A DNA stretch of 64,000 nt from positions 92,108-156,107 of the forward strand of contig CBDCVV010000016.1 of the NCBI GenBank assembly GCA_965223235.1. Direction: 5' to 3'. Every line of letters starts with the position of its first letter. Within the stretch, counting starts at the first letter, position 1. Below the pieces are notes generated by a model. It searched no databases and was not told the origin of the DNA. It saw only the letters and a list, made by a program, of their open reading frames with translations. Shown piece after piece: positions 2,512 through 26,432 of the stretch. This DNA comes from Longimicrobiales bacterium. GTDB taxonomy: Bacteria > Gemmatimonadota > Gemmatimonadetes > Longimicrobiales > Gaopeijiaceae. The position numbers were made by a program, and so were the translations under genes.

Positions 2512-4281
2512 TCAGATTCGCGCCTGAACCGTGTAGAGCTGGTGATACCTGCCTTCCTTCGCGATAAGCTCCTCGTGCTTACCACGCTCCACGATGTGTC
2601 CGTCTTCCAGAACCAGGATCAGATCGGCTCGCTGAATCGTAGACAAGCGGTGCGCGATCACGATCGTGGTTCGGTCACGAAGCAGGTCGTCCAAGCTCGC
2701 CTGGATGAGCGCTTCGCTCTCCGTGTCGAGGCTCGAGGTCGCTTCGTCGAGAAGTAAGATGCGGGGATTGGCCAGGAGTGCCCGAGCGATGGTAACGCGT
2801 TGTCGTTGCCCCCCGCTCAACTTGACTCCGCGTTCCCCGATGACCGTCTCCAAGCCGTCTGGGAAACGATCTGAGAACTCGGTGACGTACGCTTTGGCCG
2901 CTGCCTCATCCACTTCAGCGTCCGAGGCTCCAGGTCGCGCGAACCGAAGGTTCTCCCGGATCGTGCCATCGAAGAGGAAGTCCTCCTGGAAGACGAGGCC
3001 CAGCTGCTTTCGGTAGGTCGACAGTTGCACGGTACGGAGGTCGACTCCGTCGACGAGTACGCGTCCGGAGTCCGGCGTGAGGAAGGAGGCCGCGAGCCCC
3101 GCCATCGTCGACTTACCGGAGCCAGAACTTCCGACCAAGGCGACGACCATCCCGGGGGCGGCCTCGAACGACACCCCCTTCAGAACTGGCTTGTCTTCTT
3201 CATATGCAAAGCGGACATCATCGAAGATGATCGTCCCCTCAACCTCCGGCATGGTGACGGTGCGCGCGGGGTCGTCGTCTTCCCGCTTCCATGCGAGTAT
3301 CTCCGCCGTGCGATCAAGACCGGCGAACGCCTCCGTCATCTGGGTTCCGATATTCGCCATCTGAATCACCGGCGCGATCAGGTAGCCGAGAAAGAGCATG
3401 AACGCCACGAGGTCCCCCGTGGAGATGACGTCCTGGCTGACCAACCAACTCCCGTACCCCAAGACCATTACGGCCGCGGTTCCCATGAAGAGCGTTCCGA
3501 GCGCCGTGACAGCCGTCGACGTGGTGAGGGTTGTCTTCACGTTGTCGAAGATTCGTAGAACGCCGGTCAGGAAGATCTCGCCCTCCTTCTCGATGGCGTG
3601 GAACCCCTTGATCACACGAATCCCACCGAGCGCTTCGGTAAGTCGTCCCGTCACCTCCGCTCGGATCTTGCCACGCTCGCGGAACGCCGGTCGGAGGGTT
3701 TTGAACGCGCGCGTCGACACGAACCCGAAGGCCGCGAGCGGGACCAGTGCCATCGTCGTCATGACGAGGTTCGTTCCAACCAGAAACGCGAAGGCAGCGA
3801 TGGCCGTGACCGTTCCACCTACGAGCTGGACGAGACCTGTGCCGACCAGATTCCGCACCCCCTCGACGTCATCCATGATGCGGGACACGAGCTCCCCGGT
3901 CTTCGTGTTGTCGAAGACCCGAACGGGTAGCTGGAGCACGTGTTGTTGAACTTGCGCTCGAAGGTGAGCGATCAAGTTCTGGGCTTCGACGGAGAGAAGA
4001 ATCGTCAGTCCGAACGACGTCGCTGCCTGGATCATGATGGCAACGGTCACCGCCCCGAGGATCGGGTAGAGCTGCGTCGGGTCGCTCGGGGGCTGCCCTG
4101 ATCCCGGTGGCGGGAGGGCATCAACGATGTACTTCGAGGCCAGCGGGAGTGCGAGACCGGACACTCGGTTTACGAAGATCAAGAGCAGGCCGAAGCTCAG
4201 TAGCCTCTTCCGAGGCCATATGATCTCCCGGAAGGCGTGCCGGAGCGAAGAGCCCGAGATCTTTTTCGACGGTTTCGACAT
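2512..4281 (-). CDS. ABC transporter, fused permease/ATP-binding protein (ABCB/MsbA-like exporter)
   Basis: 589 aa. Six-TM N-terminal half, Walker A GSSGSGKST, ABC signature LSGGQRQRVTIARAL and Walker B ILLLDEATS. Confidence 0.9.
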   Translation of the reverse strand: MSKPSKKISGSSLRHAFREIIWPRKRLLSFGLLLIFVNRVSGLALPLASKYIVDALPPPGSGQPPSDPTQLYPILGAVTVAIMIQAATSFGLTILLSVEAQNLIAHLRAQVQQHVLQLPVRVFDNTKTGELVSRIMDDVEGVRNLVGTGLVQLVGGTVTAIAAFAFLVGTNLVMTTMALVPLAAFGFVSTRAFKTLRPAFRERGKIRAEVTGRLTEALGGIRVIKGFHAIEKEGEIFLTGVLRIFDNVKTTLTTSTAVTALGTLFMGTAAVMVLGYGSWLVSQDVISTGDLVAFMLFLGYLIAPVIQMANIGTQMTEAFAGLDRTAEILAWKREDDDPARTVTMPEVEGTIIFDDVRFAYEEDKPVLKGVSFEAAPGMVVALVGSSGSGKSTMAGLAASFLTPDSGRVLVDGVDLRTVQLSTYRKQLGLVFQEDFLFDGTIRENLRFARPGASDAEVDEAAAKAYVTEFSDRFPDGLETVIGERGVKLSGGQRQRVTIARALLANPRILLLDEATSSLDTESEALIQASLDDLLRDRTTIVIAHRLSTIQRADLILVLEDGHIVERGKHEELIAKEGRYHQLYTVQARI

Positions 4282-4451
4282 GGTCGCGGAAGATACACTA
4301 TCATTCCCACTCTGCGGACTGTGGGCCTGAGGAACGGGTGGCGTCCCCTTGGGACCTATTCTCGCCCCGTGTAGCTTTTCGCGTTCCTCCCACTGGTTCT
4401 GGCACCCGAGCGAGCTCGGGACGCGGGACGGTGAAGCCCCGAAGATGAACT

Positions 4452-6905
4452 ATGGTCCACGATGATCGGGACGGGTACGACCCGTCGGAAGTCGAAGAGA
4501 AATGGCAGCGCCTCTGGGACGAGCGGGGCACGAATACGCACACGCTGGAGGAGCTACGGGACGCAGAGGACCCGTTCTATAACTTGATGATGTTCCCGTA
4601 TCCCTCGGCTGAAGGGCTACACGTCGGGAACATCTACGCCTTTACGGGAGCCGACGCTCACGGGCGATACCAGCGTCTCTTGGGAAAAACGGTGTTCGAA
4701 CCCATGGGTTTCGACGCGTTCGGAATTCACTCCGAGAACTTTGCGCTGAAGATCGGGACCCACCCGATGGACCTGATCCCTTCGAACATCGAGAACTTCA
4801 CCCGCCAACTCCGGCGGATGGGGGGGATGTTCGATTGGCAACACGCCGTCGACACCACCGATCCCGCGTACTACAAGTGGACCCAATGGCTCTTCCTCCA
4901 ATTCTTCAATAACGGATTGGCGGAGCGGAAGGAGGCGCCGGTCAACTGGTGTCCTTCCTGCATGACCGTGCTGGCGAACGAGCAGGTGATCTCGGGTCTC
5001 TGCGAGCGCTGTGACACTCCGGTCGAACAGCGGCGGATCGCCCAGTGGTTCTTCAAGATCTCAGAATACGCGCAGCGCTTGCTCGACAACCTGAGCCACA
5101 TCGACTGGTCGCAGAAGACACTCAAACAACAGAACAACTGGATTGGTCGGAGCACCGGTGCTCAGCTGCACTTCCCGGTTGTCGATGCGAACGGAAGTGA
5201 GACGGGGGTCCGTGTCGAGGTGTACACGACTCGCCCCGATACTGTGTTCGGTGCGACGTATATCGTCCTTTCTCCGGAACATCCGCTCGTGGAGTCGGTG
5301 GTCGACGACGGATTGCGTGCACCTGTGTACGCGTACATCGACACCGCGGCGAAGAAAGACCTGGTCGCCCGCCAGAAGACGGACAAGACGAAGACTGGGG
5401 TCCCGACGGGGGGCTTCTGTCGCAACCCGGCGAATGGCGAGCTAGTACCGATCTGGGTCGCCGACTACGTCCTCATGGAGTATGGGACCGGGGCGATTAT
5501 GGCCGTGCCCGGCCACGACGAGCGCGACTTCGACTTCGCGACCCAGTTTGAGCTACCGATCGTTCGGGTCGTCGCGGGCCCCGACGACAAGGTGGATTCA
5601 CCGCTGGAGGAAGCGTACGTCGGACCGGGCTCTTTGGTGAACTCGGGCGACTTCGACGGCATCGACGTGTCGGAGTCCGTCGAGGCCGTTACGGCGTGGG
5701 CTGCCGAGCAGGGTTGGGGTGAAGCGAAGGTGAATTTCCGGTTGCACGACTGGTGCATCTCCAGGCAGCGGTATTGGGGACCACCGATCCCGGTGGTTCA
5801 CTGCGACGCGTGCGGTCCGGTCGGAGTCCCGGAGGACGAACTGCCTGTCGTGCTACCTCGGATCGATGACTTTCGGCCGGATGACTCCGGGATCAGCCCG
5901 CTTGCTCGGGTGGAGTCGTGGTACCGCACGACGTGTCCGAAGTGCGGCGCTGACGCCCGAAGGGAGACCGATGTTTCGGACACCTTCCTCGATTCGAGCT
6001 GGTACTTCCTCCGGTACCCGTCGACCGACTTCGACGATCGTCCATTTGACGAAGGACTGCTGAAGAAGTGGTTGCCGGTCGATACCTACATCGGTGGCAA
6101 CGAGCACGCCGTCTTGCATCTGCTCTACTCTCGGTTTGTGACTATGGTGCTGAAGGACCTCGGGCACCTCGACTTCGAAGAGCCGTACGATGTCTTCCGT
6201 GCCCACGGAACGATCACGCACGAAGGCTCGAAGATGTCGAAGAGCCGGGGCAACGTCGTTCTGCCGGATCCGCTGATCCGCGAATTCGGGGCCGACACCT
6301 TCCGTATGTATCTCATGTTCCTAGGGCCCTTCGAGGAAGGTGGTGACTACCAGTCGACGGGTATCCAGGGCCCATACGGCTTTCTTCACCGACTATGGAA
6401 TACGGCGTTGTCAGCCACGGACGGAGAGCCGGATGCCGACGTCACGCGAAAGCTCCATCAAACGATCGAGAAGGTGACCGAGCAGATTCCTCAGCTCGGG
6501 TACAACACGGCGATCGCGGCGCTTATGGAGTACCTGAATACAGTGCGTGCGGGAGGCCGGAGTGCTGTGCGGGCCGAGGTAGAGCCGATTGTGGTCATGG
6601 TTGCTCCCTTTGCCCCTCATATCGCGGAGGAGCTTTGGGAGAGGCTCGGTCATTCAGAGAGCATCTTTTCCGGAAGAAATTGGCCGGAATTCGATCCGGA
6701 GAAGACGATCGAATCGACGGTCGAGATCGCGATCCAAGTCAACGGAAAGTTGAGGGCTACGGTCTCGATGGCGGTCGACGCGACGGAGGAGGCGGTGGTC
6801 TCAGCGGCCAAAGCAGAAGAGAATGTCTCGAAGCATCTCGAAGGAAAGACAGAGCGACGCGTGGTCTTTGTCCCTGGCCGGCTCGTGAACTTTGTCGTCG
6901 GCTGA
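4452..6905 (+). CDS. leuS: leucine--tRNA ligase
   Basis: 817 aa. Class I HIGH-like region (PSAEGLHVGN), KMSKS motif (KMSKSRGN) and the CP1/editing region typical of bacterial LeuRS. Confidence 0.95.
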   Translation: MVHDDRDGYDPSEVEEKWQRLWDERGTNTHTLEELRDAEDPFYNLMMFPYPSAEGLHVGNIYAFTGADAHGRYQRLLGKTVFEPMGFDAFGIHSENFALKIGTHPMDLIPSNIENFTRQLRRMGGMFDWQHAVDTTDPAYYKWTQWLFLQFFNNGLAERKEAPVNWCPSCMTVLANEQVISGLCERCDTPVEQRRIAQWFFKISEYAQRLLDNLSHIDWSQKTLKQQNNWIGRSTGAQLHFPVVDANGSETGVRVEVYTTRPDTVFGATYIVLSPEHPLVESVVDDGLRAPVYAYIDTAAKKDLVARQKTDKTKTGVPTGGFCRNPANGELVPIWVADYVLMEYGTGAIMAVPGHDERDFDFATQFELPIVRVVAGPDDKVDSPLEEAYVGPGSLVNSGDFDGIDVSESVEAVTAWAAEQGWGEAKVNFRLHDWCISRQRYWGPPIPVVHCDACGPVGVPEDELPVVLPRIDDFRPDDSGISPLARVESWYRTTCPKCGADARRETDVSDTFLDSSWYFLRYPSTDFDDRPFDEGLLKKWLPVDTYIGGNEHAVLHLLYSRFVTMVLKDLGHLDFEEPYDVFRAHGTITHEGSKMSKSRGNVVLPDPLIREFGADTFRMYLMFLGPFEEGGDYQSTGIQGPYGFLHRLWNTALSATDGEPDADVTRKLHQTIEKVTEQIPQLGYNTAIAALMEYLNTVRAGGRSAVRAEVEPIVVMVAPFAPHIAEELWERLGHSESIFSGRNWPEFDPEKTIESTVEIAIQVNGKLRATVSMAVDATEEAVVSAAKAEENVSKHLEGKTERRVVFVPGRLVNFVVG

Positions 6906-17517: not shown

Positions 17518-18168
17518 ATGCATCGACGTGTGTTGGGAAGTGTGATCATGATGGGGCTCATGGCCGGGTGCGGCGGGGATGACAACACCACGGGACCCAC
17601 GCCGCAGACGGCCGTGGCACTCCAGAGCGGGGACGGTCAGACGCAGACCGTCGGGCAGGCGCTCGCGAGTCCGGTCGTGGTACGGGTGTCACGAGATGGC
17701 CAGGCGCTACCCGGCGCGACCGTGAGTTGGTCCGTGACCGCGGGTGGAGGGTCAGTGAACCCGGCTTCGTCGACTACGGATGGGAGTGGGTTGGCATCGA
17801 CCACGTGGACGTTGGGTCCTGCGGTGGGTGCCAACACGCTAGAGGCGGCGGTTTCGGGAGCTACGAATTCGCCCGTGTCGTTTTCCGCGTCCGGTGAGTC
17901 AGCCACGTTGCCGACGACGGCTTCGGTGACGGTCGGAGCCGGTGGCAACAACTTCAGTCCGACATCTGTCTCGATCGCGACGGGTGGCGAGGTTACGTGG
18001 ACTTGGGCGGCTGGCTCCGTCGACCACAATGTCACCTTCTCGAGCGGCTCGAACTCGGCGACGCAGGATGGGGGAACGTTCCAGAGGACGTTTCCGACTG
18101 CTGGGTCGTTTGACTACCTCTGCACGATTCACGGTGCTGCCATGTCGGGGACGGTAGTGGTGCAGTAG
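17518..18168 (+). CDS. lipoprotein with one Big_1-like Ig repeat fused to a cupredoxin (plastocyanin-like) domain
   Basis: 216 aa with lipobox LMAGCGG. The GDGQTQTVGQAL...GGGSV...TWTLG repeat matches those of the 41.3-45.8 kb gene. The C-terminal H(DHNV)...YLCTIHGAAM gives a type-1 copper ligand pattern (H, C, H, M). Confidence 0.7.
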   Translation: MHRRVLGSVIMMGLMAGCGGDDNTTGPTPQTAVALQSGDGQTQTVGQALASPVVVRVSRDGQALPGATVSWSVTAGGGSVNPASSTTDGSGLASTTWTLGPAVGANTLEAAVSGATNSPVSFSASGESATLPTTASVTVGAGGNNFSPTSVSIATGGEVTWTWAAGSVDHNVTFSSGSNSATQDGGTFQRTFPTAGSFDYLCTIHGAAMSGTVVVQ

Positions 18169-18193
18169 TGGGGAGCGAGACTTCGTCTAAACC

Positions 18194-18226
18194 AGAGCCC
18201 CTCGGGCCAGAGACCGGAGGGGCTCT
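18194..18226. terminator. GC hairpin between convergent genes (member of a recurrent hairpin family)
   Basis: agagcccctc / gaggggctct is a 10-bp stem; the loop is gggccagagaccg. The same core recurs at 21599, 21786 and 21969. Confidence 0.55.
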
Positions 18227-18295
18227 TTACGGAATGCGAAGGGTGGGTATCCCGCGGGAGGAGCTCGAGGGGGCTCAGAGGGGTGTCGACGAGAG

Positions 18296-18595
18296 CTAGA
18301 CGGCGGCGCCTTCCCACATCGTGTCGAGTGCGGCGCGCGTCTCCCGCAGTGCTCCGCGCCCAGCAGGTTCGACAGAGAAGTACTTCTTGGCACGTCCCCC
18401 ACGCTCGGAGCTCGGTGGTCCGAGCTCGTAGGTCAGGTACCCCTTATTAGCGAGCCGACGGAGGGCGGTATAGACGGCTCCGTACGAGACGTCTCGGCCA
18501 GTGCGTTGCTCGATCTCCTCACGGATCTCCATGCCGTACGCACGGTTCTCGAGACGAATGACCGCAAGAAGGACCAGCTGCTCGAACTCTCCCAT
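18296..18595 (-). CDS. PadR family transcriptional regulator
   Basis: 99 aa: MGEFEQLVLLAVIRLENRAYGMEIREEIEQRTGRDVSYGAVYTALRRLANKGYL is a typical PadR winged helix. Only this terminal part of the 331-aa ORF is credited. Confidence 0.85.
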   Translation of the reverse strand: MGEFEQLVLLAVIRLENRAYGMEIREEIEQRTGRDVSYGAVYTALRRLANKGYLTYELGPPSSERGGRAKKYFSVEPAGRGALRETRAALDTMWEGAAV

Positions 18596-18597
18596 GA

Positions 18598-21243
18598 CTA
18601 CTCCGATCGCAGCGCAACAACGGGCGATACCCGGACGGCCCGAGCGGCGGGCAGCACCGAGGCCGCGATCGCCGACGCTCCCAGCGCAAGGGATCCGAAC
18701 AGCACCGTAACCACCTCGGCCGCTCCGACACCATAGACGAACGATTCGATGACCCGGGTCGAACCCCACACACCCACGAGCCCGAACCCGATGCCCCAGA
18801 TGGCCAGCCGCACACCACGCTTCAACACCAAGCTCACGATCCCACCCCCAGCTGCTCCGAGTGCCATCCGAATTCCGAGCTCGCGGACGCGCCGAGAGAC
18901 GAAGTAGGAAACCGTACCGTAGATCCCTGCCGCCGCCAGAAAGAGCGCCGCGATCGCGAATACGGCGACCAGCGTGGTATAGAAGCGTCGTTGGGCCAAG
19001 GCCCGATCGACCCGCTCCGCCATAGTGCGTATCGCACCGGGGGGCTGCGTCGGGTCGACGGCCGCGACCGCCCCACGGACGCCATTGACGATCTCGACCG
19101 GATCCACGTCTGCTCCTATCACAACGAAGCCGGAACCACTCCAACCCTGGTTGAACGGGAGATAGGCTTCGCTGAGCGGCTCCTGCTCCATACCCCACTG
19201 ACGGACGGTGGCGACCACTCCGACCACTGTTAGCCACGGTGGGTTCGAGTCGAAGCCGAACTGCTTGCCGATGGGGTCCTCTCCCGGCCATACGTCCTCA
19301 GCCATCTGCTGGTTGATCAGGACACCCACGGCACCCGTGGCCGTGTCCGCTGCCTCCAGCAAGCGTCCCCTGAGGAGCGGGATACCCATGGCTTGGAAGT
19401 AGTCACCGAATACGCTCGAGACCTCGACGAGCGGCCCCTCACTACTACTGGCTCGAGTAGGGGCGTCCGCGAGCTGGACATTGCCGTTCGACCCTCCGGC
19501 TAGAGGCAGCTTGCTTACGAAGCCGACCTCTCGTACACCCGGAATCGCGTCGACCTCGTCAAGGATCTCCTCGTAGAACCGCTGCATGGCTCCACTGGCC
19601 TCGTACCGAGGGCCCGAGGCGTTGAGGGCCATCGTCAAGACCCCCCGAGTAGAGAAGCCCTGCTCCTGCCCCCTGACGTTCGCGTAGCTGCTGACGAGCA
19701 CCCCAGCGGCGTTGACCAAGATCAAGCCGACCGCGATCTGCACGACGATGAAGGTGTCACGCATGCGCTCCTTCTTCGGAGCCAGCGTCGAATGGCCGCC
19801 CTCCTTCACTCCGGAGGCGACGTCGGTCCGGGAGGCCAGGAGGGCAGGTAGGACGCCGAATACCAGCGACGTCGCTACGGAGGCGGCCACCGCAAAGAGT
19901 AGAACCGTTCCGTCGACACCGATCTGGTCGACACGGGGCACTGTAGGTGGGAGCAGGGATCGGAGTCGGTCAACGGCAAAGAAGGCCACTCCGATCCCAC
20001 CGACTGCCGCGATCGCCGAGAGAACAACGCTTTCGGCGAAGAGGAGACGGACCAGAGTGCGCCGGGAAGCCCCGAGGGCCGTCCGCACCGCCAGCTCACC
20101 CTCTCGCCCGGCTGCACGCGCCAGCAGAAGTCCGGCGACATTCGCACATGCGATGATGAGAACGAGAGCGGCAGCGGCCAGCAGCGTTCTGAACTGGGTG
20201 CCAGCCTCCCCATATCGATACTCGTGCGCGGTCTGCACGAGTGCGCCCCAGCCGCTGTTCGTTTCCGGATACTCGGCTTCGAGCTCAGCGGCGATGCGTT
20301 GCATATCCGCTCGCCCTGACTCAACGGGCACTCCGTCGCGGAGTCGAGCGATGACCGGATAGCTGTGGTTACCACGGCCCCCGTCGAAGAGCTCGTTGGG
20401 AAAGGGAGTGAAGAGCTCGTGGCTTCTGAGGCTACCCCAAGGCGAGGGGACGTCGAACCCCTCCGGCATGACACCCACGACCTCGTGCACCTCGCCGTTG
20501 ATCTCGAGACCTTCGCCGAGGGCGCCGGGCCGACTGTCGAAGAGTCGCCGCCAAAGAGCGTGGGTCAGAACAACAACCCTCGCTCCGTTCTGATCAGACT
20601 CCAACAGCGGCCGCCCATGGAGAGGCGGCACCTCCAGGACGTCGAAGGCGCTCCCGGTCACGGCGGTTCCATATACACGCTCGGCTTTATCGAGTCCGGT
20701 GAGATTGAAGAACCCGGGTCGAAGTGCAGCCATGCCTTCGAAGCTCCGCTGGCGTTCGACGAAGTCGAGGTAGTCCGGTCCGGATGCAGGGCCGCAGCAC
20801 CCGAAGGCCCCGAGCCCCATGACGACGACGATCTCCTCCGACTCTGGAAGGTCCAGAGGGTCGAGGAAGACCGCCTTGTACACACCGAAGAGTGAGGTCG
20901 TGAAGCCGACACCGACGGCGAGTGTCACCGCGATTGTGGCTGAAAATCCAGGGCGCCTAAGAAGCGCCCGTAGTGCTAGTCGAAGATCGTTTCCCCACAT
21001 GGCTATCCCCTCCCCCATCGGTTCTTCGCGCCGGAAGGCGTCGGCCTGTTCCGAGCACCAGGCGCGGAAGGCGGGCGCGAGCGACCGCACCGCCTGAGCG
21101 CGGTACCAAGCCCGCGCGGCGTGCTTACCGCGATGGGCGTGTCGCCGCCGGTACTCTTCCTCCGCGTCACCTCGGACTGCGTCGCGGTCCTCTGGGGCGA
21201 GGAATCTCCCAAGTAGCCACACCCACACCCTTCCCGGCTTCAC
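18598..21243 (-). CDS. duplicated FtsX/MacB-like ABC permease (ADOP-type)
   Basis: 881 aa from a GTG start with a GGGAGG RBS. Two MacB-periplasmic-plus-FtsX modules. The N-terminal leader (LAPEDRDAVRGDAEEEY) is typical of PadR-linked permeases. Confidence 0.85.
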   Translation of the reverse strand: MKPGRVWVWLLGRFLAPEDRDAVRGDAEEEYRRRHAHRGKHAARAWYRAQAVRSLAPAFRAWCSEQADAFRREEPMGEGIAMWGNDLRLALRALLRRPGFSATIAVTLAVGVGFTTSLFGVYKAVFLDPLDLPESEEIVVVMGLGAFGCCGPASGPDYLDFVERQRSFEGMAALRPGFFNLTGLDKAERVYGTAVTGSAFDVLEVPPLHGRPLLESDQNGARVVVLTHALWRRLFDSRPGALGEGLEINGEVHEVVGVMPEGFDVPSPWGSLRSHELFTPFPNELFDGGRGNHSYPVIARLRDGVPVESGRADMQRIAAELEAEYPETNSGWGALVQTAHEYRYGEAGTQFRTLLAAAALVLIIACANVAGLLLARAAGREGELAVRTALGASRRTLVRLLFAESVVLSAIAAVGGIGVAFFAVDRLRSLLPPTVPRVDQIGVDGTVLLFAVAASVATSLVFGVLPALLASRTDVASGVKEGGHSTLAPKKERMRDTFIVVQIAVGLILVNAAGVLVSSYANVRGQEQGFSTRGVLTMALNASGPRYEASGAMQRFYEEILDEVDAIPGVREVGFVSKLPLAGGSNGNVQLADAPTRASSSEGPLVEVSSVFGDYFQAMGIPLLRGRLLEAADTATGAVGVLINQQMAEDVWPGEDPIGKQFGFDSNPPWLTVVGVVATVRQWGMEQEPLSEAYLPFNQGWSGSGFVVIGADVDPVEIVNGVRGAVAAVDPTQPPGAIRTMAERVDRALAQRRFYTTLVAVFAIAALFLAAAGIYGTVSYFVSRRVRELGIRMALGAAGGGIVSLVLKRGVRLAIWGIGFGLVGVWGSTRVIESFVYGVGAAEVVTVLFGSLALGASAIAASVLPAARAVRVSPVVALRSE

Positions 21244-21323
21244 CCGTACCTCCCGTCGGCATCATATGCGACACAGTGTATCATATACATCTAGACACGA
21301 CAATCGTCGATTGGGTTGCGAGC

Positions 21324-22001
21324 GGGTAGGCGGAGGGTCACCGAGTGGGCGCCTCGGCTCGAACCCTCGACCTAGGTGCGGGGGTTCTCTCGACGGGCAG
21401 GTATGCAAAACCCTCTCAGATCTTGCGCGATCTGAAGGGGCTTCAGCGGAATGCGAGGGATGGAGCTGCGGTCGGCTACGCCGATCCTCGCTCGTCTCGG
21501 CGAGGGGCGGGTAGGCGGAGGTCACCGAGTGGGCGCCTCGGCTCGAACCCCTCGACCAGGGTGCGGGGGTTCACCGACCTCCGGGCGGGCGTGCGAAAGC
21601 CCCTCAAGGCCAGAGACCTGAGGGGCTTTGACGGAGCGCGAGGGATGGAGCTGCGGTCGGCTACGCCGATCCTCGCTCGTCTCGGCGAGGGGCGGGTAGG
21701 TGGAGGTCACCGAGTGGGCGCCTCGGCTCGAACCCCTCGACCTAGGTGCGGGGGTTCTTTTGAATACCTGACGGTTATGTGAAAACCCCTCAGGCCAGAG
21801 ACCTGAGGGGCTTTTACGGAGCGCGAGGGATGGAGCTGCGGTCGGCTACGCCGATCCTCGCTCGTCTCGGCGAGGGGTGGGTAGGCGGAGGTCACCGAGT
21901 GGGCGCCTCGGCTCGAACCCCTCGACCAGGGTGCGGGGGTTCACCGACTTCCGGGCGGGCGTGCGAAGGCCCCTCAAGGCCAGAGACTTGAGGGGCTTTT
22001 A
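21324..22001 (-). repeat. tandem array of about 3.7 x 185-bp tRNA-Ser(CGA) echo units
   Basis: gggtaggcggagg recurs at 21324, 21509, 21694 and 21879. The tRNA 3' 15-mer cggagcgcgagggat recurs at 21447 (degenerate), 21632 and 21817, and the real gene starts at 22002. Confidence 0.9.
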
Positions 22002-22084
22002 CGGAGCGCGAGGGATTCGAACCCCCAAGTCCTTTCGGACGCTCGCTTTCGAGGCGAGTGCATTAGCCATTCTGCCAGCGCTCC
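22002..22084 (-). tRNA. tRNA-Ser (anticodon CGA)
   Basis: Manual cloverleaf: GGAGCGC acceptor, anticodon arm CUCGC-CUCGAAA-GCGAG, long variable arm GUCC-GAAA-GGAC, T arm GGGGG-UUCGAAU-CCCUC. No encoded CCA. Confidence 0.9.
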
Positions 22085-22161
22085 TGATACCGTAGCGCGG
22101 GCGCGGTGGGGATCGCGAATCCACGCGGTGCGGATAGTTAGGCCGGTGTGGAGGTTGATTG

Positions 22162-22231
22162 CGCGGCTCGAACCTGCGGTTCGAACCGGAACCACATACT
22201 GACTTTGTCTAATATCGGGGTGCCCGGATTC
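22162..22231 (-). repeat. echo of the tRNA-Pro(CGG) 3' end plus its downstream flank
   Basis: 22162-22231 parallels 22293-22362. The shared sequence is cggctcgaacctgcggttcgaacc...ctgact...taatatcggggtgcccggattc. Identity to the gene ends after ggattc, inside the T-loop. Confidence 0.8.
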
Positions 22232-22345
22232 ATCTCGCTCACGCTCGATGGTCTCGCGGTAACCAGTCTGACTGAAGCCGATGAAATGGGCCGCTCGGCT
22301 CGAACCTGCGGTTCGAACCCGGATCCACTTGCTGACTCTTCCTAA

Positions 22346-22419
22346 TCGGGGTGCCCGGATTCGAACCGGGGACCTCTGCGACCCGAACGCAGCGCTCTAC
22401 CGGACTGAGCCACACCCCG
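22346..22419 (-). tRNA. tRNA-Pro (anticodon CGG)
   Basis: CGGGGUG acceptor, anticodon arm CUGCG-UUCGGGU-CGCAG, T arm CCCGG-UUCGAAU-CCGGG. 74 nt. Confidence 0.9.
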
Positions 22420-22439
22420 GACTACTCGGGTACCTGCAC

Positions 22440-22633
22440 CGACGGGGTGGGATTGAGCTGCGGGCGGCCATGCCGCCCTCGCTCCACTCGCGAGTCACCA
22501 CAGCAGGTACTCGCGTAGACCACCTGTCGCTCGAGTCGAACTCACGCGGCATCCTGCTTCGCAGTCTGCGTGGGTTCGAACGGGAGGGTCGTCGTGACTC
22601 TCTCGTCCACATTCTTCAGTGACTCTTTCAGAA
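22440..22633 (-). repeat. tRNA-Ser(GGA) echo unit
   Basis: gacggggtgggatt at 22441-22454 equals the 3' end of the gene at 22634. It is followed by gagctgcg, a 7-bp hairpin gggcggc-cat-gccgccc and ctcgc-tccactc-gcgag. An inverted T-arm-like gcgtgggttcgaac lies further on. Confidence 0.8.
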
Positions 22634-22716
22634 CGGACGGGGTGGGATTCGAACCCACGCGGACAATGTCCACACGATTTCCAATCGTGCGCCTTAAGCC
22701 ACTCGGCCACCCGTCC
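22634..22716 (-). tRNA. tRNA-Ser (anticodon GGA)
   Basis: GGACGGG acceptor, D-loop GCCGAGUGG, anticodon arm CACGA-UUGGAAA-UCGUG, long variable arm, T arm GUGGG-UUCGAAU-CCCAC. Confidence 0.9.
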
Positions 22717-22754
22717 AAGATGCGGCCGCAGGACTTCTGGCCGACTCTCCCGTT

Positions 22755-22936
22755 GAGGGAGTGGGATGGGCTCGCTGCGCGAGCCGCGTCGCGGAGCACC
22801 AGGGTGGTGCTTCGCGTGTTCGGGCGGGCCGCTCGGCTCAAACCCACTGCCGTCCTCGCTTCGCGAGTCCGGGTGGGTTCGAACTGGATGGTCTTGCGAC
22901 CGAGTTCGTCCACATGGCTTCTCGCGATGCGTTCAA
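22755..22936 (-). repeat. tRNA-Ser(GCU) echo unit
   Basis: gagggagtgggat at 22755-22767 equals the 3' end of the gene at 22937. It is followed by a 7-bp hairpin ggctcgc-tgc-gcgagcc. The unit also contains gccgctcggctcaaaccc, ctcgc-ttc-gcgag, gggtgggttcgaac and tcgtccacat, shared with the Ser(GGA) unit. Confidence 0.8.
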
Positions 22937-23020
22937 CGGAGGGAGTGGGATTCGAACCCACGCGGTGCAAGCACCAACGCCTTAGCAGGGCGCCGCCTTA
23001 AGCCACTCGGCCATCCCTCC
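22937..23020 (-). tRNA. tRNA-Ser (anticodon GCU)
   Basis: GGAGGGA acceptor, anticodon arm GCGCC-CUGCUAA-GGCGU, long variable arm, T arm GUGGG-UUCGAAU-CCCAC. Confidence 0.9.
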
Positions 23021-23030
23021 CTTCGAGCTA

Positions 23031-23103
23031 TAGCCCTGCTAGGGCTCGAACCTAGACTCTTCGGAACCAGAATCCGACGTGTTGCCAGTTACACCACAGG
23101 GCT
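23031..23103 (-). tRNA. tRNA-Gln (anticodon CUG)
   Basis: AGCCCUG acceptor, anticodon arm UCGGA-UUCUGGU-UCCGA, T arm CUAGG-UUCGAGC-CCUAG. 73 nt. Confidence 0.88.
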
Positions 23104-23120
23104 AAGAAAACAAAACCGAG

Positions 23121-23193
23121 AGCCACCAGTCGGACTTGAACCGACGACCCCGTCATTACGAGTGACGTGCTCTACCAGCTGAGCTATGGTGGC
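23121..23193 (-). tRNA. tRNA-Thr (anticodon CGU)
   Basis: GCCACCA acceptor, anticodon arm CGUCA-CUCGUAA-UGACG, T arm GUCGG-UUCAAGU-CCGAC. Confidence 0.9.
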
Positions 23194-23202
23194 AACCAGA
23201 AG

Positions 23203-23275
23203 TGGAGCCGAGGGGAATCGAACCCCTGACCTCAGCGTTGCGAACGCTGCGCTCTCCCAACTGAGCTACGGCCCC
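23203..23275 (-). tRNA. tRNA-Ala (anticodon CGC)
   Basis: GGGGCCG acceptor with G3:U70, anticodon arm CAGCG-UUCGCAA-CGCUG, T arm AGGGG-UUCGAUU-CCCCU. Confidence 0.9.
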
Positions 23276-23345
23276 GTACACGCCGCCCGTAGGGGCGGGC
23301 CGAGGGACGTGAGCGGTCCATAGCCCACAGAACTCGGCAGATTCA

Positions 23346-23419
<74 letters not shown>

Positions 23420-23443
23420 GACACCCGACTGTCAGGTCCTTCA

Positions 23444-23517
23444 TGCGCCCGGGAGGACTCGAACCCCCAACCTCCTGATCCGTAGTCAGGCACTCTATCC
23501 AATTGAGCTACGGGCGC
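23444..23517 (-). tRNA. tRNA-Arg (anticodon ACG)
   Basis: GCGCCCG acceptor, anticodon arm CCUGA-CUACGGA-UCAGG, T arm GGGGG-UUCGAGU-CCUCC. Confidence 0.9.
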
Positions 23518-23551
23518 TTTAACGCGAGCTCCGCCTTTGGACTCACGCCCC

Positions 23552-23682
23552 CTCTTGAGGGGTGAGACCCGAGTGCGTCGCAAGGCGGGCAAGGCGACGC
23601 GATCGAGGCGTACTCTTGTACGCCGCAGTGAGCGGAGACCGTAGCCCAACGCCGCGAGGCGCCGGAGATCACCCCTCAAGAG
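23552..23682 (-). other. 131-nt multi-stem structured spacer closed by 14-bp terminal inverted repeats
   Basis: ctcttgaggggtga (23552-23565) is the reverse complement of tcacccctcaagag (23669-23682). Internal 7-bp stems are gcgtcgc/gcgacgc and ggcgtac/gtacgcc. The element abuts the 3' end of tRNA-Leu(GAG). Confidence 0.6.
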
Positions 23683-23766
23683 TGCCCACGACAGGACTCG
23701 AACCTGTACGCCGTTTCCGGCACTGGTCCCTCAAACCAGCCTGTCTACCAATTTCAGCACGTGGGC
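23683..23766 (-). tRNA. tRNA-Leu (anticodon GAG)
   Basis: GCCCACG acceptor, anticodon arm CUGGU-UUGAGGG-ACCAG, long variable arm, T arm ACAGG-UUCGAGU-CCUGU. Confidence 0.9.
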
Positions 23767-23796
23767 TTATGAACTAACCGCCCGGGTGGGCGACAA

Positions 23797-23881
23797 TGCT
23801 CGAGGAGGGACTCGAACCCTCACGGGGTTAACCCCCACAGGGTCCTGAACCCTGCGCGTCTACCAATTCCGCCACCCGAGC
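23797..23881 (-). tRNA. tRNA-Leu (anticodon CAG)
   Basis: GCUCGGG acceptor, anticodon arm CAGGG-UUCAGGA-CCCUG, long variable arm, T arm GAGGG-UUCGAGU-CCCUC. Confidence 0.9.
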
Positions 23882-23923
23882 CCGCGATCGGTACTTCGGG
23901 CTTGCGGCGCCCGGGTTCCGACA

Positions 23924-23996
<73 letters not shown>

Positions 23997-24056
23997 CTCC
24001 ACACGACCTAGGGAGCCGCCTCCAGGGAGACGACTCCGTTTGTCAAATAACCTGAG

Positions 24057-24130
24057 CGGGGCTGACGAGACTCGAACTCGCGACCTCCGGTGTGACAGAC
24101 CGGCACTCTAACCGACTGAGCTACAGCCCC
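24057..24130 (-). tRNA. tRNA-Asp (anticodon GUC)
   Basis: GGGGCUG acceptor, anticodon arm CCGGU-CUGUCAC-ACCGG, T arm GCGAG-UUCGAGU-CUCGU. Confidence 0.9.
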
Positions 24131-24173
24131 AGGTTGTAAACAGCTGCCCTGCTTTTACTGCGGTCCTGCAAAA

Positions 24174-24245
24174 TACCCCGACGGGGAATTGAACCCCGAT
24201 TGCCAGGTTGAAAACCTGGTGTCCTAACCATTAGACGACCGGGGC
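24174..24245 (-). tRNA. tRNA-Glu (anticodon UUC)
   Basis: GCCCCGG acceptor (two G-U pairs), anticodon arm CCAGG-UUUUCAA-CCUGG, T arm CGGGG-UUCAAUU-CCCCG. Confidence 0.85.
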
Positions 24246-24261
24246 TCCTATTCCCGACGTA

Positions 24262-24334
24262 CAGGCCCGGAGGGACTCGAACCCCCAACCCCCGGTTTTG
24301 GAGACCGGTGCTCTACCAGTTGAGCTACGGACCT
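24262..24334 (-). tRNA. tRNA-Trp (anticodon CCA)
   Basis: AGGUCCG acceptor, anticodon arm CCGGU-CUCCAAA-ACCGG, T arm GGGGG-UUCGAGU-CCCUC. Confidence 0.9.
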
Positions 24335-24378
24335 CTAGCTCTCTTTTACCACATCCGCCGCGAGCGACGGTTTCCTCA

Positions 24379-24451
24379 TGGCCAGGGGCGGAATCGAACC
24401 GCCGACACCATGATTTTCAGTCATGTGCTCTACCAACTGAGCTACCTGGCC
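24379..24451 (-). tRNA. tRNA-Phe (anticodon GAA)
   Basis: GGCCAGG acceptor, anticodon arm CAUGA-CUGAAAA-UCAUG, T arm GGCGG-UUCGAUU-CCGCC. Confidence 0.9.
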
Positions 24452-24456
24452 CAGAC

Positions 24457-24491
24457 AAAAAACCCGCCCGGACCCTTTCGGCTCGGACGGG
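24457..24491 (-). terminator. rho-independent terminator inside the tRNA cluster
   Basis: Minus-strand read: CCCGUCCGAGCC-GAAA-GGGUCCGGGCGGG followed by UUUUUU, immediately upstream of tRNA-Phe. Confidence 0.7.
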
Positions 24492-24617
24492 AGTCAGCTC
24501 CGGAGAGATCGGTCTTACCGATCCTCCGCTCCCGCCCGCTGCCGCGGGCTCCACGAGTCGGAAACGATCCAGAGATCGGTACTTTGCACACCCGCTCCTT
24601 CAACGTTGCCGAACGTG
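24492..24617 (-). ncRNA. candidate small RNA between two terminator-like hairpins (unknown family)
   Basis: About 125 nt, bounded by the hairpin at 24618-24641 and the terminator at 24457-24491. Internal hairpins are cgatc-tctg-gatcg and gatcggt-aag-accgatc. No credible ORF and no match to SRP, 6S or tmRNA motifs that I can recall. Confidence 0.3.
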
Positions 24618-24641
24618 GGAAACGCCGCCCTTCGGCGGCGC
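24618..24641 (-). terminator. terminator-like hairpin just after tRNA-fMet
   Basis: Minus-strand read: CGCCGCC-GAAG-GGCGGCG followed by UUUCCC. 7-bp GC stem with a short U run. Confidence 0.45.
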
Positions 24642-24653
24642 TTCACAAACAAA

Positions 24654-24727
<74 letters not shown>

Positions 24728-24738
24728 ACAGGACGGAG

Positions 24739-24768
24739 AAGTTAGTCGAATCGCGGAGACGTGGTCAA
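24739..24768 (-). promoter_or_regulatory. candidate sigma70-type promoter for tRNA-fMet
   Basis: Minus-strand read: TTGACC, an 18-nt spacer, then TAACTT. The -10 hexamer ends 11 nt before the mature tRNA 5' end. Confidence 0.4.
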
Positions 24769-24837
24769 CCCGTTTCTTACGGCGGAAAGGAGCGCACATT
24801 GTACCCTGTCCGACTCCCACTAGGAGGGTGGTGACCG

Positions 24838-26073
24838 ATGCTTAGCTCCGTCTTCATGGATTTGGCCACGGCGCTCGGGTTGGGTCTGCTGGTGGGTCTT
24901 CAGAAGGAGCGGGCCGAGTCACCCCTGGCGGGCCTGCGCACGTTTGCGCTGGTTACCCTGAGCGGTTCTATAGCCGCGATCGTCGGAGAGGCCACGACGC
25001 CGTGGGTTGTTGTTGGTGGATTGCTGACAACGAGTGCGCTCATGGTGACGGGGAACGCCGTCCTTATGAAGGCCGAGGGCACGGACGCGGGCCAGACGAC
25101 GGAGGCCGCCGTGATCGTGATGTATCTGGTCGGCGCACTTGTGGTCGTCGCGCCCCGCGAGGTGGCGATTGTGTGCGGGGCGACCACCGCGATGTTGCTC
25201 CACCTTCGGGAAGAACTGAGAACGTGGGTGGATCGACTCAGCGATCGCGACGTGCGGGCGATCATGCAATTCGCCGTGATCTCGCTCGTGATCTTGCCAG
25301 TACTTCCCGATCAGGCGTACGGCCCTTACGAAGTGATCAACCCACGTCAGGTCTGGTGGATGGTTGTTCTGATCGTGGGGCTTAACCTCGCTGGCTACGG
25401 AGCTTTCCGACTCATGGGCGCGCGTGCGGGCACGGCCCTAGCAGGCGTGCTAGGCGGCGTGATATCGAGTACCGCGACGACTGTTTCCTATGCGCGACAG
25501 ACTAAGGCCGAGGGAGGGATGGAGGGCACCGCCGCCCTCGTAGTTTGGATCGCGTCTGGAGTCGTGTTCGTGCGTCTCTTGGTCGAGATCGGGGCCGTGG
25601 CTCCCGACTTTCTCCCGGTCGCGGCGGGCCCGTTGGTTGTGATGTTGGTGGTCTTCGCAGTGTTGGCTGGGTTGGTATGGCGGTCCGCGACGACCCCGGG
25701 TGAGATCCCTCTAGAGCCCGGAAACCCGACAGAGTTACGCCCCGCCATCTTCTTTGGCGCTTTGTACGCGTTCGTCCTCTTCATCGTGGCGGCCGGTCAG
25801 GACCTCATGGGAGACGCCGGGTTGTACGCGGCGGCCGCGGTCTCGGGGCTTACCGATGTGGATGCCATCACGTTATCCACGTCACGTCTCGTCGATACCG
25901 ACCGACTCGACCCCGATGTCGGGTGGCGCCTCGTCCTGATCGCGGTTCTTTCGAACCTGGTGTTCAAGCTCGGTCTGGCCGCGACCCTGGGCAGCCGGGA
26001 CTTTGCGAAGAAGCTCGGAAGGCTGGGTGCTGTGGCGCTCGCAGCGGGAGTGGGGATCTTGCTCCTCTGGTGA
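24838..26073 (+). CDS. MgtC/SapB-family plus DUF4010-type integral membrane protein
   Basis: 411 aa, polytopic. The N-terminus LGLGLLVGLQKERAESPLAGLRTFALVTLSG is typical of MgtC/DUF4010 proteins. GGAGGG RBS. Confidence 0.7.
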   Translation: MLSSVFMDLATALGLGLLVGLQKERAESPLAGLRTFALVTLSGSIAAIVGEATTPWVVVGGLLTTSALMVTGNAVLMKAEGTDAGQTTEAAVIVMYLVGALVVVAPREVAIVCGATTAMLLHLREELRTWVDRLSDRDVRAIMQFAVISLVILPVLPDQAYGPYEVINPRQVWWMVVLIVGLNLAGYGAFRLMGARAGTALAGVLGGVISSTATTVSYARQTKAEGGMEGTAALVVWIASGVVFVRLLVEIGAVAPDFLPVAAGPLVVMLVVFAVLAGLVWRSATTPGEIPLEPGNPTELRPAIFFGALYAFVLFIVAAGQDLMGDAGLYAAAAVSGLTDVDAITLSTSRLVDTDRLDPDVGWRLVLIAVLSNLVFKLGLAATLGSRDFAKKLGRLGAVALAAGVGILLLW

Positions 26074-26080
26074 GACGGTG

Positions 26081-26358
26081 GCCCAGCCGCATGCTGCGGC
26101 TGGGACCACCTATCGGGACGGCCGGATGTTGCTGCACGAGGCTCGGGCAGACGGTGGTTGAGAACATGGGCGTGCACCGATCCGGCGGTAGAAACAAGAA
26201 AGGCCCCAGCCGCATGCTGCGGCTGGGACCATCAATCGGGACGGCCGGATGTTGCTGCACGAGGCTCGGGCAGACGGTGGTTGAGAACATGGGCGTGCAC
26301 CGATCCGGCCGTGGAAACAAGAAAGGCCCCAGCCGCATGCTGCGGCTGGGACCACCCA
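26081..26358 (-). repeat. tandem array of about 2.3 x 123-bp tRNA-Pro(GGG) echo units
   Basis: tcgggacggccggat occurs at 26113 and 26236, and at 26359 in the real gene. The hairpin cccagccgca-tgc-tgcggctggg occurs at 26082, 26205 and 26328. Identity to the gene stops after ggat, inside the T-loop. Confidence 0.9.
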
Positions 26359-26432
26359 TCGGGACGGCCGGATTCGAACCGGCGACCCCCTGAACCCCAT
26401 TCAGGTGCGCTACCGGGCTGCGCCACGTCCCG
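26359..26432 (-). tRNA. tRNA-Pro (anticodon GGG)
   Basis: CGGGACG acceptor, anticodon arm CCUGA-AUGGGGU-UCAGG, T arm GCCGG-UUCGAAU-CCGGC. 74 nt. Confidence 0.9.

Follow-up and report, generated by a model that had tools for sequence, protein, structure and literature searches.

A folded miniature element at a fixed T-loop position in partial tRNA copies of Gemmatimonadota, a possible mobile element behind a tRNA-Ser(CGA) repeat array

Of all the sites at which mobile DNA lands, tRNA genes are the most familiar, and integrases are the usual explanation. Here, we describe a locus in a 64,000-nucleotide stretch of a Longimicrobiales genome (contig CBDCVV010000016.1, positions 92,108 to 156,107; the whole stretch is called the window) in which a tandem array of 185-bp units follows tRNA-Ser(CGA). 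In these units, a segment of 81 nt (80 to 94 nt over all copies), which we call E, interrupts a partial tRNA T arm between GGTTCGA and ATCC, at the boundary of tRNA positions 58 and 59. Past E the tRNA sequence resumes with ATCC, the 3′ strand of the T stem, and the 3′ strand of the acceptor stem; we refer to this right half of the split fragment as the echo. E is compact, conserved, and folded, and it lies with nucleotide precision in T loops, and in one anticodon loop, across the poorly studied phylum Gemmatimonadota. In kind, its nearest counterparts are site-specific miniature insertion elements and the scars of tRNA-associated integration, and it differs from both by its target inside tRNA loops, its covarying three-helix fold, and its obligatory coupling to a spare tRNA end.

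Derivatives of HUH transposons, namely the palindrome-associated transposable elements of IS200/IS605 and the one-ended products of the IS91 family, are small and free of open reading frames (ORFs). Like E, they have asymmetric ends and leave no target duplication; a hairpin sits some 10 nt short of the 3′ end, and one fixed end lies against a short, specific target that can be read on either strand. E is set apart from them by the failure to find a cognate transposase, by its few copies per genome in tRNA-derived loops, and by a long-range helix (P1) around a variable region. Islands and prophages in tRNA and transfer-messenger RNA (tmRNA) genes, including tandem accretions and remnants similar to cis-mobilizable elements, share with E the direct repeats of tRNA 3′ ends, the T- and anticodon-loop sites, and the same tRNAs and tmRNA, and, as in the window, they place units and cargo in series downstream of an intact gene. 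In contrast to these islands, the units described here are shorter than 210 bp, the ORFs checked included no integrase, the ends carry no identity to the target core, and the fold is a covarying one with several hairpins. Integron attC sites and repetitive extragenic palindromes (REP), or their bacterial interspersed mosaic elements, with RAYT proteins resemble E in keeping stem structure over sequence, in strict Watson-Crick stems, and in series that enclose genes, but E has highly conserved junctions, a three-helix fold in place of one imperfect palindrome, and a tRNA-loop target, and neither IntI nor RAYT was seen with it. Introns of tRNA genes (archaeal bulge-helix-bulge introns, for example at 58/59, and bacterial group I introns) are also intervening sequences at a fixed tRNA-loop position. 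An intron was rejected as the identity of E: of 91 "spliced" reconstructions only 4 were called as tRNAs, an intact cognate gene is nearly always adjacent at 36 to 150 nt, group I introns are far larger than E, and bacteria are not known to have the archaeal splicing endonuclease. Finally, tRNA trailers and mimics (the sponge in the 3′ external transcribed spacer of leuZ, the tRNA-like domain of tmRNA, and YrlA) likewise lie in the flanks of tRNA transcripts, and some E units have a closing helix that reproduces the acceptor and T stems; in E, however, a hairpin sequesters the T-loop sequence, transcription is putative, and Rfam gave no sequence or model similarity.

We examined the array with Tandem Repeats Finder, which called positions 21322-22016 at period 185 (3.8 copies, 86% matches, score 1007) and, in a second call, period 370 (1.9 copies, 89% matches), and the 185-bp periodicity proposed by a first-pass annotation of this DNA was thus borne out. 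The intact tRNA-Ser(CGA) gene (22002-22084, minus strand; ARAGORN; Rfam tRNA model, 55 bits), the final gene of a 17-tRNA array, is the source of the echoed 3′ 15-mer, which reads ATCCCTCGCGCTCCG on the minus strand at 22002-22016. Exact copies of the 15-mer at 21817-21831 and 21632-21646, and a copy with two mismatches at 21447-21461, were found where that annotation had placed them, at spacings of exactly 185. Its statement that the gene continues from the 15-mer as ttcgaaccccc and the echoes as tggagctgcgg also held, as did its view that the units restart with the tRNA 3′ end and are no trivial repeat. Each full unit, read on the minus strand, terminates in this 15-mer. Two points go beyond the earlier description: the junction is a fixed T-loop position, and the roughly 125 nt conserved between units are mostly the 81-nt structured element E.

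The array as a whole (21309-22001) consists of three full 185-bp units and a fourth, which had been counted as complete and whose conserved part is cut off after 37 nt, at about 21329. Unit U1 (21817-22001, minus strand) comprises, in order, a hairpin, spacer variant A, a GAACCCC..GGGGTTCGA foldback, E (21832-21912), and the echo (21817-21831), and the covariance model of E, termed R1, scored it at 84 bits over 21824-21924. Unit U2 (21632-21816, minus strand; 87 bits, 21639-21739) has spacer variant B, E at 21647-21727, and an echo at 21632-21646, and unit U3 (21447-21631, minus strand; 85 bits, 21454-21554) has variant A, E at 21462-21542, and the two-mismatch echo at 21447-21461. The truncated unit U4 (21329-21446, minus strand; partial hit of 19 bits over 21309-21370) consists of a divergent hairpin, spacer variant B, GGGTTCGA, and only the first 37 nt of E (21329-21365). 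The part of about 60 nt described as occurring in three variants is indeed variable, and in our unit alignment it alternates mainly as ABAB (U1 with U3, U2 with U4), with a divergent hairpin in U4; the array is therefore a doubled two-unit array. Mismatches in the echoes rise with distance from the gene, from 0 and 0 to 2 and to more than 4. The 10-bp GC hairpins taken earlier for bidirectional terminators are present, but their role as terminators found little support, the T runs being too short for any site to pass the terminator scan. Similar arrays are present in long-read assemblies (L076, L053, and L063; L numbers denote locus sequences from other sources).

E starts with GCCGAGCGGCCC and runs through a variable middle to CCGCGAGACGAGCGAGGA, a hairpin, and CCGCAGCTCC. 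With slashes marking its ends, the junction GGTTCGA/GCCGAG...GCAGCTCC/ATCC was found at tRNA-Ser (TGA, CGA, GGA, and GCT), tRNA-Pro (TGG, CGG, and GGG), tRNA-Cys, and tRNA-Arg(CCG), and in tmRNA, whose loop is TTCGACT, it reads TTCGA/E/CTCC. In a second context, E occupies the anticodon loop of a 5′ partial copy of tRNA-Pro(GGG), as CCTGA/E/ATGG, 49 to 66 nt upstream of the intact gene at at least nine loci. In L043, E is antisense within inverted tRNA-Ser fragments (GAGGGATTCGA/E/ACCCCC), and a copy in L053 looks alike; the target is therefore usable on either strand, with the same end of E adjoining it. The left flank was TTCGA, TTTGA, CTCGA, or CCTGA in all copies checked, and the right flank varied (ATCC, ATGG, CTCC, or ACCC). 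The constant feature across loops and strands is therefore ..YYNGA directly 5′ of the GCCGAG end, the right flank being free. Removal of E reconstitutes the target exactly, without target duplication. The site, identical to the nucleotide, recurs in some ten different genes, besides the second loop and the opposite strand. Full-length tRNA copies split by E stand beside an intact copy in L026, L126/L151, L166, and L085, and truncated copies of E abut unrelated genes in the window and in L037, L086, L090, and L076, the neighbor in L086 being an AbrB/VapB-like ORF as judged by its N-terminal sequence only.

E is a folded structure, supported by covariation. We used two alignments, a structure-blind MAFFT alignment of 61 distinct copies (A1) and one fitted with model R1 (A2), for which copies were accepted at an expect value of ≤1e-4. 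On A1, the long-range helix P1 (G-S-S-G with C-S-S-C), which encloses the variable region, was 99.6% paired through switches between CGG:CCG, GCG:CGC, and GGG:CCC, and helix P4 (GAGC with GCUC) was 99.2% paired, with variants that include CACC:GGUG, GACC:GGUC, GGGC:GCCC, and GAUC:GAUC. The hairpin P3, located 10 to 11 nt from the 3′ end of E, is free to vary in sequence and keeps its pairing through compensatory changes, and the whole forms a three-helix structure. Double changes were seen in 14 of the 20 modelled pairs on A1 and in 18 of them on A2, where 93% of cells were paired, compared to 30 to 58% in controls with the 3′ partners slid. Among 500 shuffles, none matched the observed values on most measures, and one did so for the double-change count on A1. 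The helices are almost purely Watson-Crick (15 G.U versus 11 A.C in about 1,500 cells), whereas the tRNA-derived T stem in the same alignment has about 5% G.U. The hairpins of E are closed by C-GNA-G triloops, a loop type typical of very stable DNA mini-hairpins, and a GAACC-GNA-GGTTC hairpin adjoins the 5′ end of E.

The window also carries echoes outside the Ser(CGA) array. All of its 18 tRNA genes are on the minus strand, 17 of them in a conserved array (22002-24728) of which Ser(CGA) is the downstream-most; a separate tRNA-Pro(GGG) lies at 26359-26432, near a gene for an MgtC/DUF4010 protein. The order of the 17 tRNAs (Met...Ser-GCT, Ser-GGA, Pro-CGG, Ser-CGA) is conserved across Gemmatimonadota (L003, L043, L142, and L238), with MgtC/DUF4010 and the separate tRNA-Pro(GGG) as neighbors, and within the array E units are restricted to the spacers behind its final four tRNAs. 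The additional echoes follow tRNA-Pro(CGG) at 131 nt, tRNA-Ser(GGA) at about 180 nt, tRNA-Ser(GCT) at about 170 nt, and tRNA-Pro(GGG), there in 123-bp repeats, and the identity of each with its tRNA begins inside the T loop (TTCGA/AT). The motif GGTTCGAGCCGAGSSGCCC, common to all units, has six matches in the window, compared to 0.15 expected by chance. When the window was scanned with R1, the three Ser(CGA) copies (84 to 87 bits), the Ser(GGA), Ser(GCT), and Pro(CGG) copies, and the truncated Ser(CGA) copy were recovered and nothing else.

These further units are all on the minus strand. Behind tRNA-Pro(CGG), a unit at 22214-22311 (49 bits, 22222-22311) has partly lost the 3′ half of E and carries the echo GAATCCGGGCACCCCGAT at 22214-22231; an older, decayed unit at 22085-22213 reads ..CCGGTTCGAACCgcaGGTTCGA/GCCGCGC and then continues into unrelated sequence, and it is homologous to the corresponding spacer of L003. 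The unit behind tRNA-Ser(GGA) (22437-22547; 60 bits, 22446-22547) consists of E, in which helix P1 is the compensated variant GCGA:UCGC, and the echo ATCCCACCCCGTCGG, and that behind tRNA-Ser(GCT) (22755-22849; 49 bits, 22760-22849) has an internally deleted E and the echo ATCCCACTCCCTC. In the 123-bp tandem repeats behind tRNA-Pro(GGG) (26082-26358), identified by repeat search and from the sequence itself, each copy reads GGCCGGAT...ATCCGGCCGTCCCGAT followed by a strong hairpin. Their E-like part has shrunk to about 52 nt and is not picked up by R1, and the repeats abut the 3′ end of the MgtC/DUF4010 gene.

We then considered the distribution of E. A motif scan covered 185,579 species genomes, and a metagenome scan used an internal motif of E and was thus unbiased for the flanks. 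The matches in species genomes were mostly in metagenome-assembled genomes (MAGs) of Gemmatimonadota, some of them tandem and some from long-read assemblies. With R1, we counted 118 copies of E in the 80 sources searched (the window and related loci), near Ser, Pro, Cys, and Arg(CCG) tRNAs and tmRNA, and in one MAG the copies at tRNA-Cys and tRNA-Pro(GGG) share a private variant of P3. A relative, L003-L005 (GCA_030836075.1), has the identical 17-tRNA array in the same order, with spacers of 22 to 114 nt behind the last four tRNAs and with neither echoes nor E at any of the four array sites. Its Pro(CGG) spacer resembles the start of the decayed distal unit of the window and so retains a remnant; the units were therefore ancestrally present and then lost in L003.

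Beyond U4 lies an operon for a MacB/FtsX-type permease and a PadR regulator (18296-21243, minus strand; Pfam, and synteny with L003). This operon is missing from the corresponding place in L003, and the gene adjoining tRNA-Ser(CGA) in that relative has its window ortholog 4.6 kb away. Local alignment revealed a fifth, degenerate Ser(CGA) echo, CCACCCTTCGCATTCCG (about 18227-18247), with the same hairpin as in U1 and U2 (about 18198-18247 in all, minus strand), at a score of 61 compared to a maximum of 27 in 300 shuffles. The operon is thus bracketed by the truncated E (21329-21365) and the fifth echo, the nearest echo on the array side being that at 21447-21461. The first-pass annotation had noted the array beside the putative promoter region of this operon; the evidence points away from a link to the promoter, and the operon looks instead like cargo within a series of repeats.

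The reading that we favor, with a probability of roughly 0.4, is that E is a miniature insertion element, dependent on hairpins and targeting TTCGA, that persists only together with a spare tRNA 3′ end, and that crossover expanded the array. E would be a small, non-autonomous, site-specific element whose activity depends on folded single-strand hairpins. It would land directly 3′ of TTCGA (loosely YYNGA), a pentanucleotide exposed by every T loop, its GCCGAG... end always adjoining the target. Plain insertion destroys the tRNA, and the copies that last are therefore those lodged in tRNA segments that are spare, partial, or duplicated and have an intact gene next to them. The moved segment may start at an upstream TTCGA in the T loop of the intact tRNA and so comprise the tRNA 3′ end, hairpin, spacer, GGTTCGA, and E; re-insertion of this composite into the same tRNA would rebuild the gene and leave the former 3′ end further downstream, as an echo. 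The array at tRNA-Ser(CGA) would at first have had two units (A and B) and have been doubled by unequal crossover to ABAB, with the oldest unit truncated and enclosing or abutting the MacB-PadR operon. Such a composite route would explain the pairing of E with echoes, the partial specialization of E by tRNA, the gradient of echo decay, and the cassette-like series with cargo. Mobility at the DNA level is supported by the exact site shared by many genes, two loops, and both strands without target duplication, by the whole tRNA copies split by E, by truncated copies beside unrelated genes, by the empty relative, by the private P3 variant at two tRNAs of one MAG as a sign of spread within a genome, by the bracketed operon, and by the nearly pure Watson-Crick helices. 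We infer that E moves, or once moved, as single-stranded DNA and by the composite route, and the kind of enzyme is likewise inferred; if it were excised as a circle, the junction would read ..GCAGCTCC/GCCGAGCGG.. One-ended events of IS91 reportedly stop at target-like sequences in the donor, a pattern similar to that proposed for the segment from the tRNA 3′ end to GGTTCGA and E.

A number of observations weigh against mobility of this kind. No transposase or recombinase linked to E was found at the loci examined, whole genomes being outside the search. Genes of the IS91 family (Y2_Tnp with Zn_Tnp_IS91) lie 0.3 to 4.5 kb from E at four loci (L223, 2323-3700, plus strand; L037, 11-1047, minus; L044, 2418-3299, plus; L236, 2-451, plus), but at none of the four does such a gene lie between the 5′ and 3′ parts of E, and the ends of these elements are unlike those of E (IS91-like ends nearby, ..TTTGGACTTCCTATCC; ori-type ends, ..GTTTGGACTTCCTATCC and ..CTCCTATCCCTACCAGTTC). 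IS91-family elements were for this reason rejected as the parent of E, and their transposases are probably just markers of island-rich DNA. At the far end of the window cargo, only about 8 nt resemble the 3′ end of E, and no intact E 3′ end was present beyond cargo at other loci in the locus sequences examined. The anticodon-loop arrangement is unexplained by the same one-directional composite route. E is present in few copies per genome and was seen at tRNA-derived sites only (in the window, only in spacers of the tRNA array), and one sampled 3.1-Mb contig had just two matching loci. Copies at different tRNAs within one genome are 74 to 82% identical, and in 37 of 67 cases the nearest relative of a copy is at the same tRNA type in another genome, relationships that would fit old, locally maintained copies. 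Finally, the Pro, Cys, and tmRNA units carry an exact 10- to 13-nt complement of the echo upstream, with additional hairpins that change in a compensatory manner between genomes, and one complete Pro(GGG) unit has a folding energy of −98 kcal/mol (z = −4.5); conserved structure outside E is not expected of passenger DNA.

These last features bear on a second explanation, which we consider possible though with less conviction, that the units are structured noncoding RNA genes or trailer or leader segments. Through the upstream complement, the unit is closed by a helix that reproduces the acceptor and T stems, and the units share a 13-bp closing helix (GGGACGGCCGGAT/ATCCGGCCGTCCC). Each unit would accordingly be a mimic of the neighboring tRNA, made by read-through from it and with E as the functional body, and the window array would be a simple tandem amplification of the module. 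The compensatory changes and the paired cells on A2, compared to the slid controls, support an RNA, and the unit architecture of closing helix and replaced extra hairpins recurs across genomes. The distance from E to its cognate tRNA is nearly constant from genome to genome (93 to 98 nt for Ser-TGA and 54 to 60 nt for Pro-CGG), E is nearly always in the orientation of the tRNA, behind each echo stands a terminator-like hairpin with a sequence of its own, and the anticodon-type copies stand in a leader position before tRNA-Pro(GGG). Yet G.U pairs as rare as A.C in the helices are unusual for RNA, and the Ser(CGA) units of the window have no 5′ complement of the echo and fold modestly (z = −2.0). 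A hairpin separates the tRNA from each unit, and no promoter was found for the units in a scan of 18100-23100, whose single promoter-like match is on the plus strand at 21256-21284. The module would still need insertion at the same T-loop position in about ten genes, antisense at least in L043; truncated copies and cargo are unexpected for an RNA gene, E is entirely lost from the L003 array, and Rfam holds no match.

The third explanation regards the echoes as attachment-site scars of tyrosine-integrase islands in tRNA and tmRNA genes, with E as a conserved element-side arm beside the crossover; each integration would have brought a new tRNA 3′ end and displaced the old one, and deletion of most of the island DNA would have left miniature remnants. 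In a 2002 survey, the T loop and the anticodon loop are reported to be the two sublocations at which crossover classically occurs, and tmRNA and the tRNAs for Ser, Pro, Arg, and Cys to be classical targets, and the positions of E match both. Partial tRNA-Arg copies begin exactly in the anticodon loop in L029, L223, and L060, and L223 has 258-nt direct repeats that contain E, lie 6,170 bp apart, and flank 6.2 kb carrying a transposase. The window operon, which L003 lacks, is bracketed by echoes, and the different hairpin after each echo looks as if it came from different donors. We nevertheless judge this explanation unlikely. No integrase was among the 10 array-flanking ORFs examined with Pfam, which gave MacB/FtsX, PadR, a plastocyanin-like protein, and MgtC/DUF4010, few other loci being annotated, and the units measure only 123 to 205 bp. 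The ends of E (GCAGCTCC/GCCGAG) share no identity block with GGTTCGA/ATCC, a misfit for tyrosine and serine recombinases, E was not found in 2.9 million viral contigs or in phage or plasmid collections, and the arm sites of integrases do not characteristically have covarying hairpins. That the array is a simple tandem duplication, made by slippage or unequal crossover from an accidental breakpoint in the tRNA, or else an assembly artefact, is very improbable. Although the ABAB order shows that unequal crossover acted on the array, the same breakpoint with an 81- to 94-nt element recurs at other window tRNAs and among the 118 copies, some of them from long-read assemblies, so that an accidental breakpoint is already refuted, and the unit variants are too different from one another to be inventions of an assembler.

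If E is mobile, it represents a new way of coping with an essential gene as target, and tandem repeats, pseudo-tRNAs, and gene capture near tRNA arrays have in it a further, new origin; if it is an RNA, it defines a new family of structured RNAs linked to tRNAs and about 180 nt long. A wider proposal, which we hold to be doubtful, is that Gemmatimonadota carry a new class of single-strand elements that target tRNA and tmRNA loops and form cassette-like series enclosing or exchanging operons such as MacB-PadR. It is similarly doubtful that such a class would constitute a T-loop-anchored platform for gene capture, distinct from integrases and integrons, in which travel with a spare tRNA 3′ end avoids lethality. 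As a variant, the units of such a class may since have been co-opted by the host as RNAs that mimic tRNA minihelices.

Several known identities were considered and rejected. Searches of Rfam 15 with the whole window at gathering thresholds, with 21200-22700 at an expect value of ≤10, and with nine of the best units elsewhere returned tRNA only, and subthreshold hits to sX4 and BjrC68 overlap tRNA or echo parts. Megablast of 21000-25000 against phage and plasmid collections gave tRNA matches only, pattern scans of the viral contigs gave coding-sequence coincidences only, and the literature searched held no description of such an element. The plus strand complements the 3′ end of the tRNA as a primer-binding site would, but a TGG for CCA is missing in front of it, and the vicinity holds no reverse transcriptase. 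A short ORF in E is contradicted by lengths of 80 to 94 nt that are not multiples of three and by hairpin length changes that break the frame. Hammerhead, hepatitis delta virus (HDV)-like, twister, and k-turn cores were not found by eye, an HDV-like P1 fitting the window copies only. The anatomy would fit TnpB with its omega RNA (TTCGA as the transposon-associated motif and the echo as guide), but no tnpB gene was found near any copy, including a long variant in L140, and we regard this identity as remote.

On the practical side, E creates tRNA-like false positives in either case, and R1 allows its annotation. In L026 (695-768, minus strand), the "tRNA-Ser(cga)" reported by ARAGORN is in truth a copy of tRNA-Pro(CGG) whose anticodon is mutated and whose 3′ end is read from E (GCCGAGCGGCCCAGC). 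In L166 (about 5100-5220, plus strand), a pseudo-copy of tRNA-Pro(UGG) has E in its T loop and a five-fold microsatellite, GGTTGTCAACGCT, in its D loop, 36 nt upstream of the intact tRNA-Pro(UGG) gene. Behind the 3′ end of the tmRNA gene ssrA, ..GGGTTCGACTCCCGCCGCCTCCA, come a hairpin and an E unit with matching echo and 5′ complement in L044 (about 4240-4400, minus strand) and L076 (about 5950-6100, minus strand); ssrA in L044 goes unreported in the tRNA-only mode of ARAGORN. A 945-kb contig labelled Solirubrobacterales, Actinomycetota (L063, CAVXJZ010000002.1), contains a Gemmatimonadota-type tRNA array with at least six E units, which reflects either mis-binning or mislabelling or transfer between phyla.

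Some observations concern the surroundings of the array. Between the truncated E and the start of the MacB-PadR operon, an AT-rich imperfect palindrome, atgtatatgatacactgtgtcgcatatgat (21265-21300), looks like a putative PadR operator or promoter region; the plus-strand promoter-like match at 21256-21284 falls in the same place. The best relatives of the MgtC/DUF4010 protein inside the tRNA array (≤81% identity) come from Gemmatimonadota and Longimicrobiales MAGs. Contigs L001, L006, and L007 stop at or just before tRNA-Met beside the MgtC gene, which suggests that E-bearing, repeat-rich tRNA arrays break short-read assemblies. The spacer between tRNA-Met and tRNA-Phe in the window (24455-24652, minus strand) is unrelated to E and unusually long, at about 200 nt, with a terminator-like hairpin directly after tRNA-Met and short internal repeats, GTACCGATCTCTGGATCG and GGATCGGTAAGACCGATCTCTCCGG.

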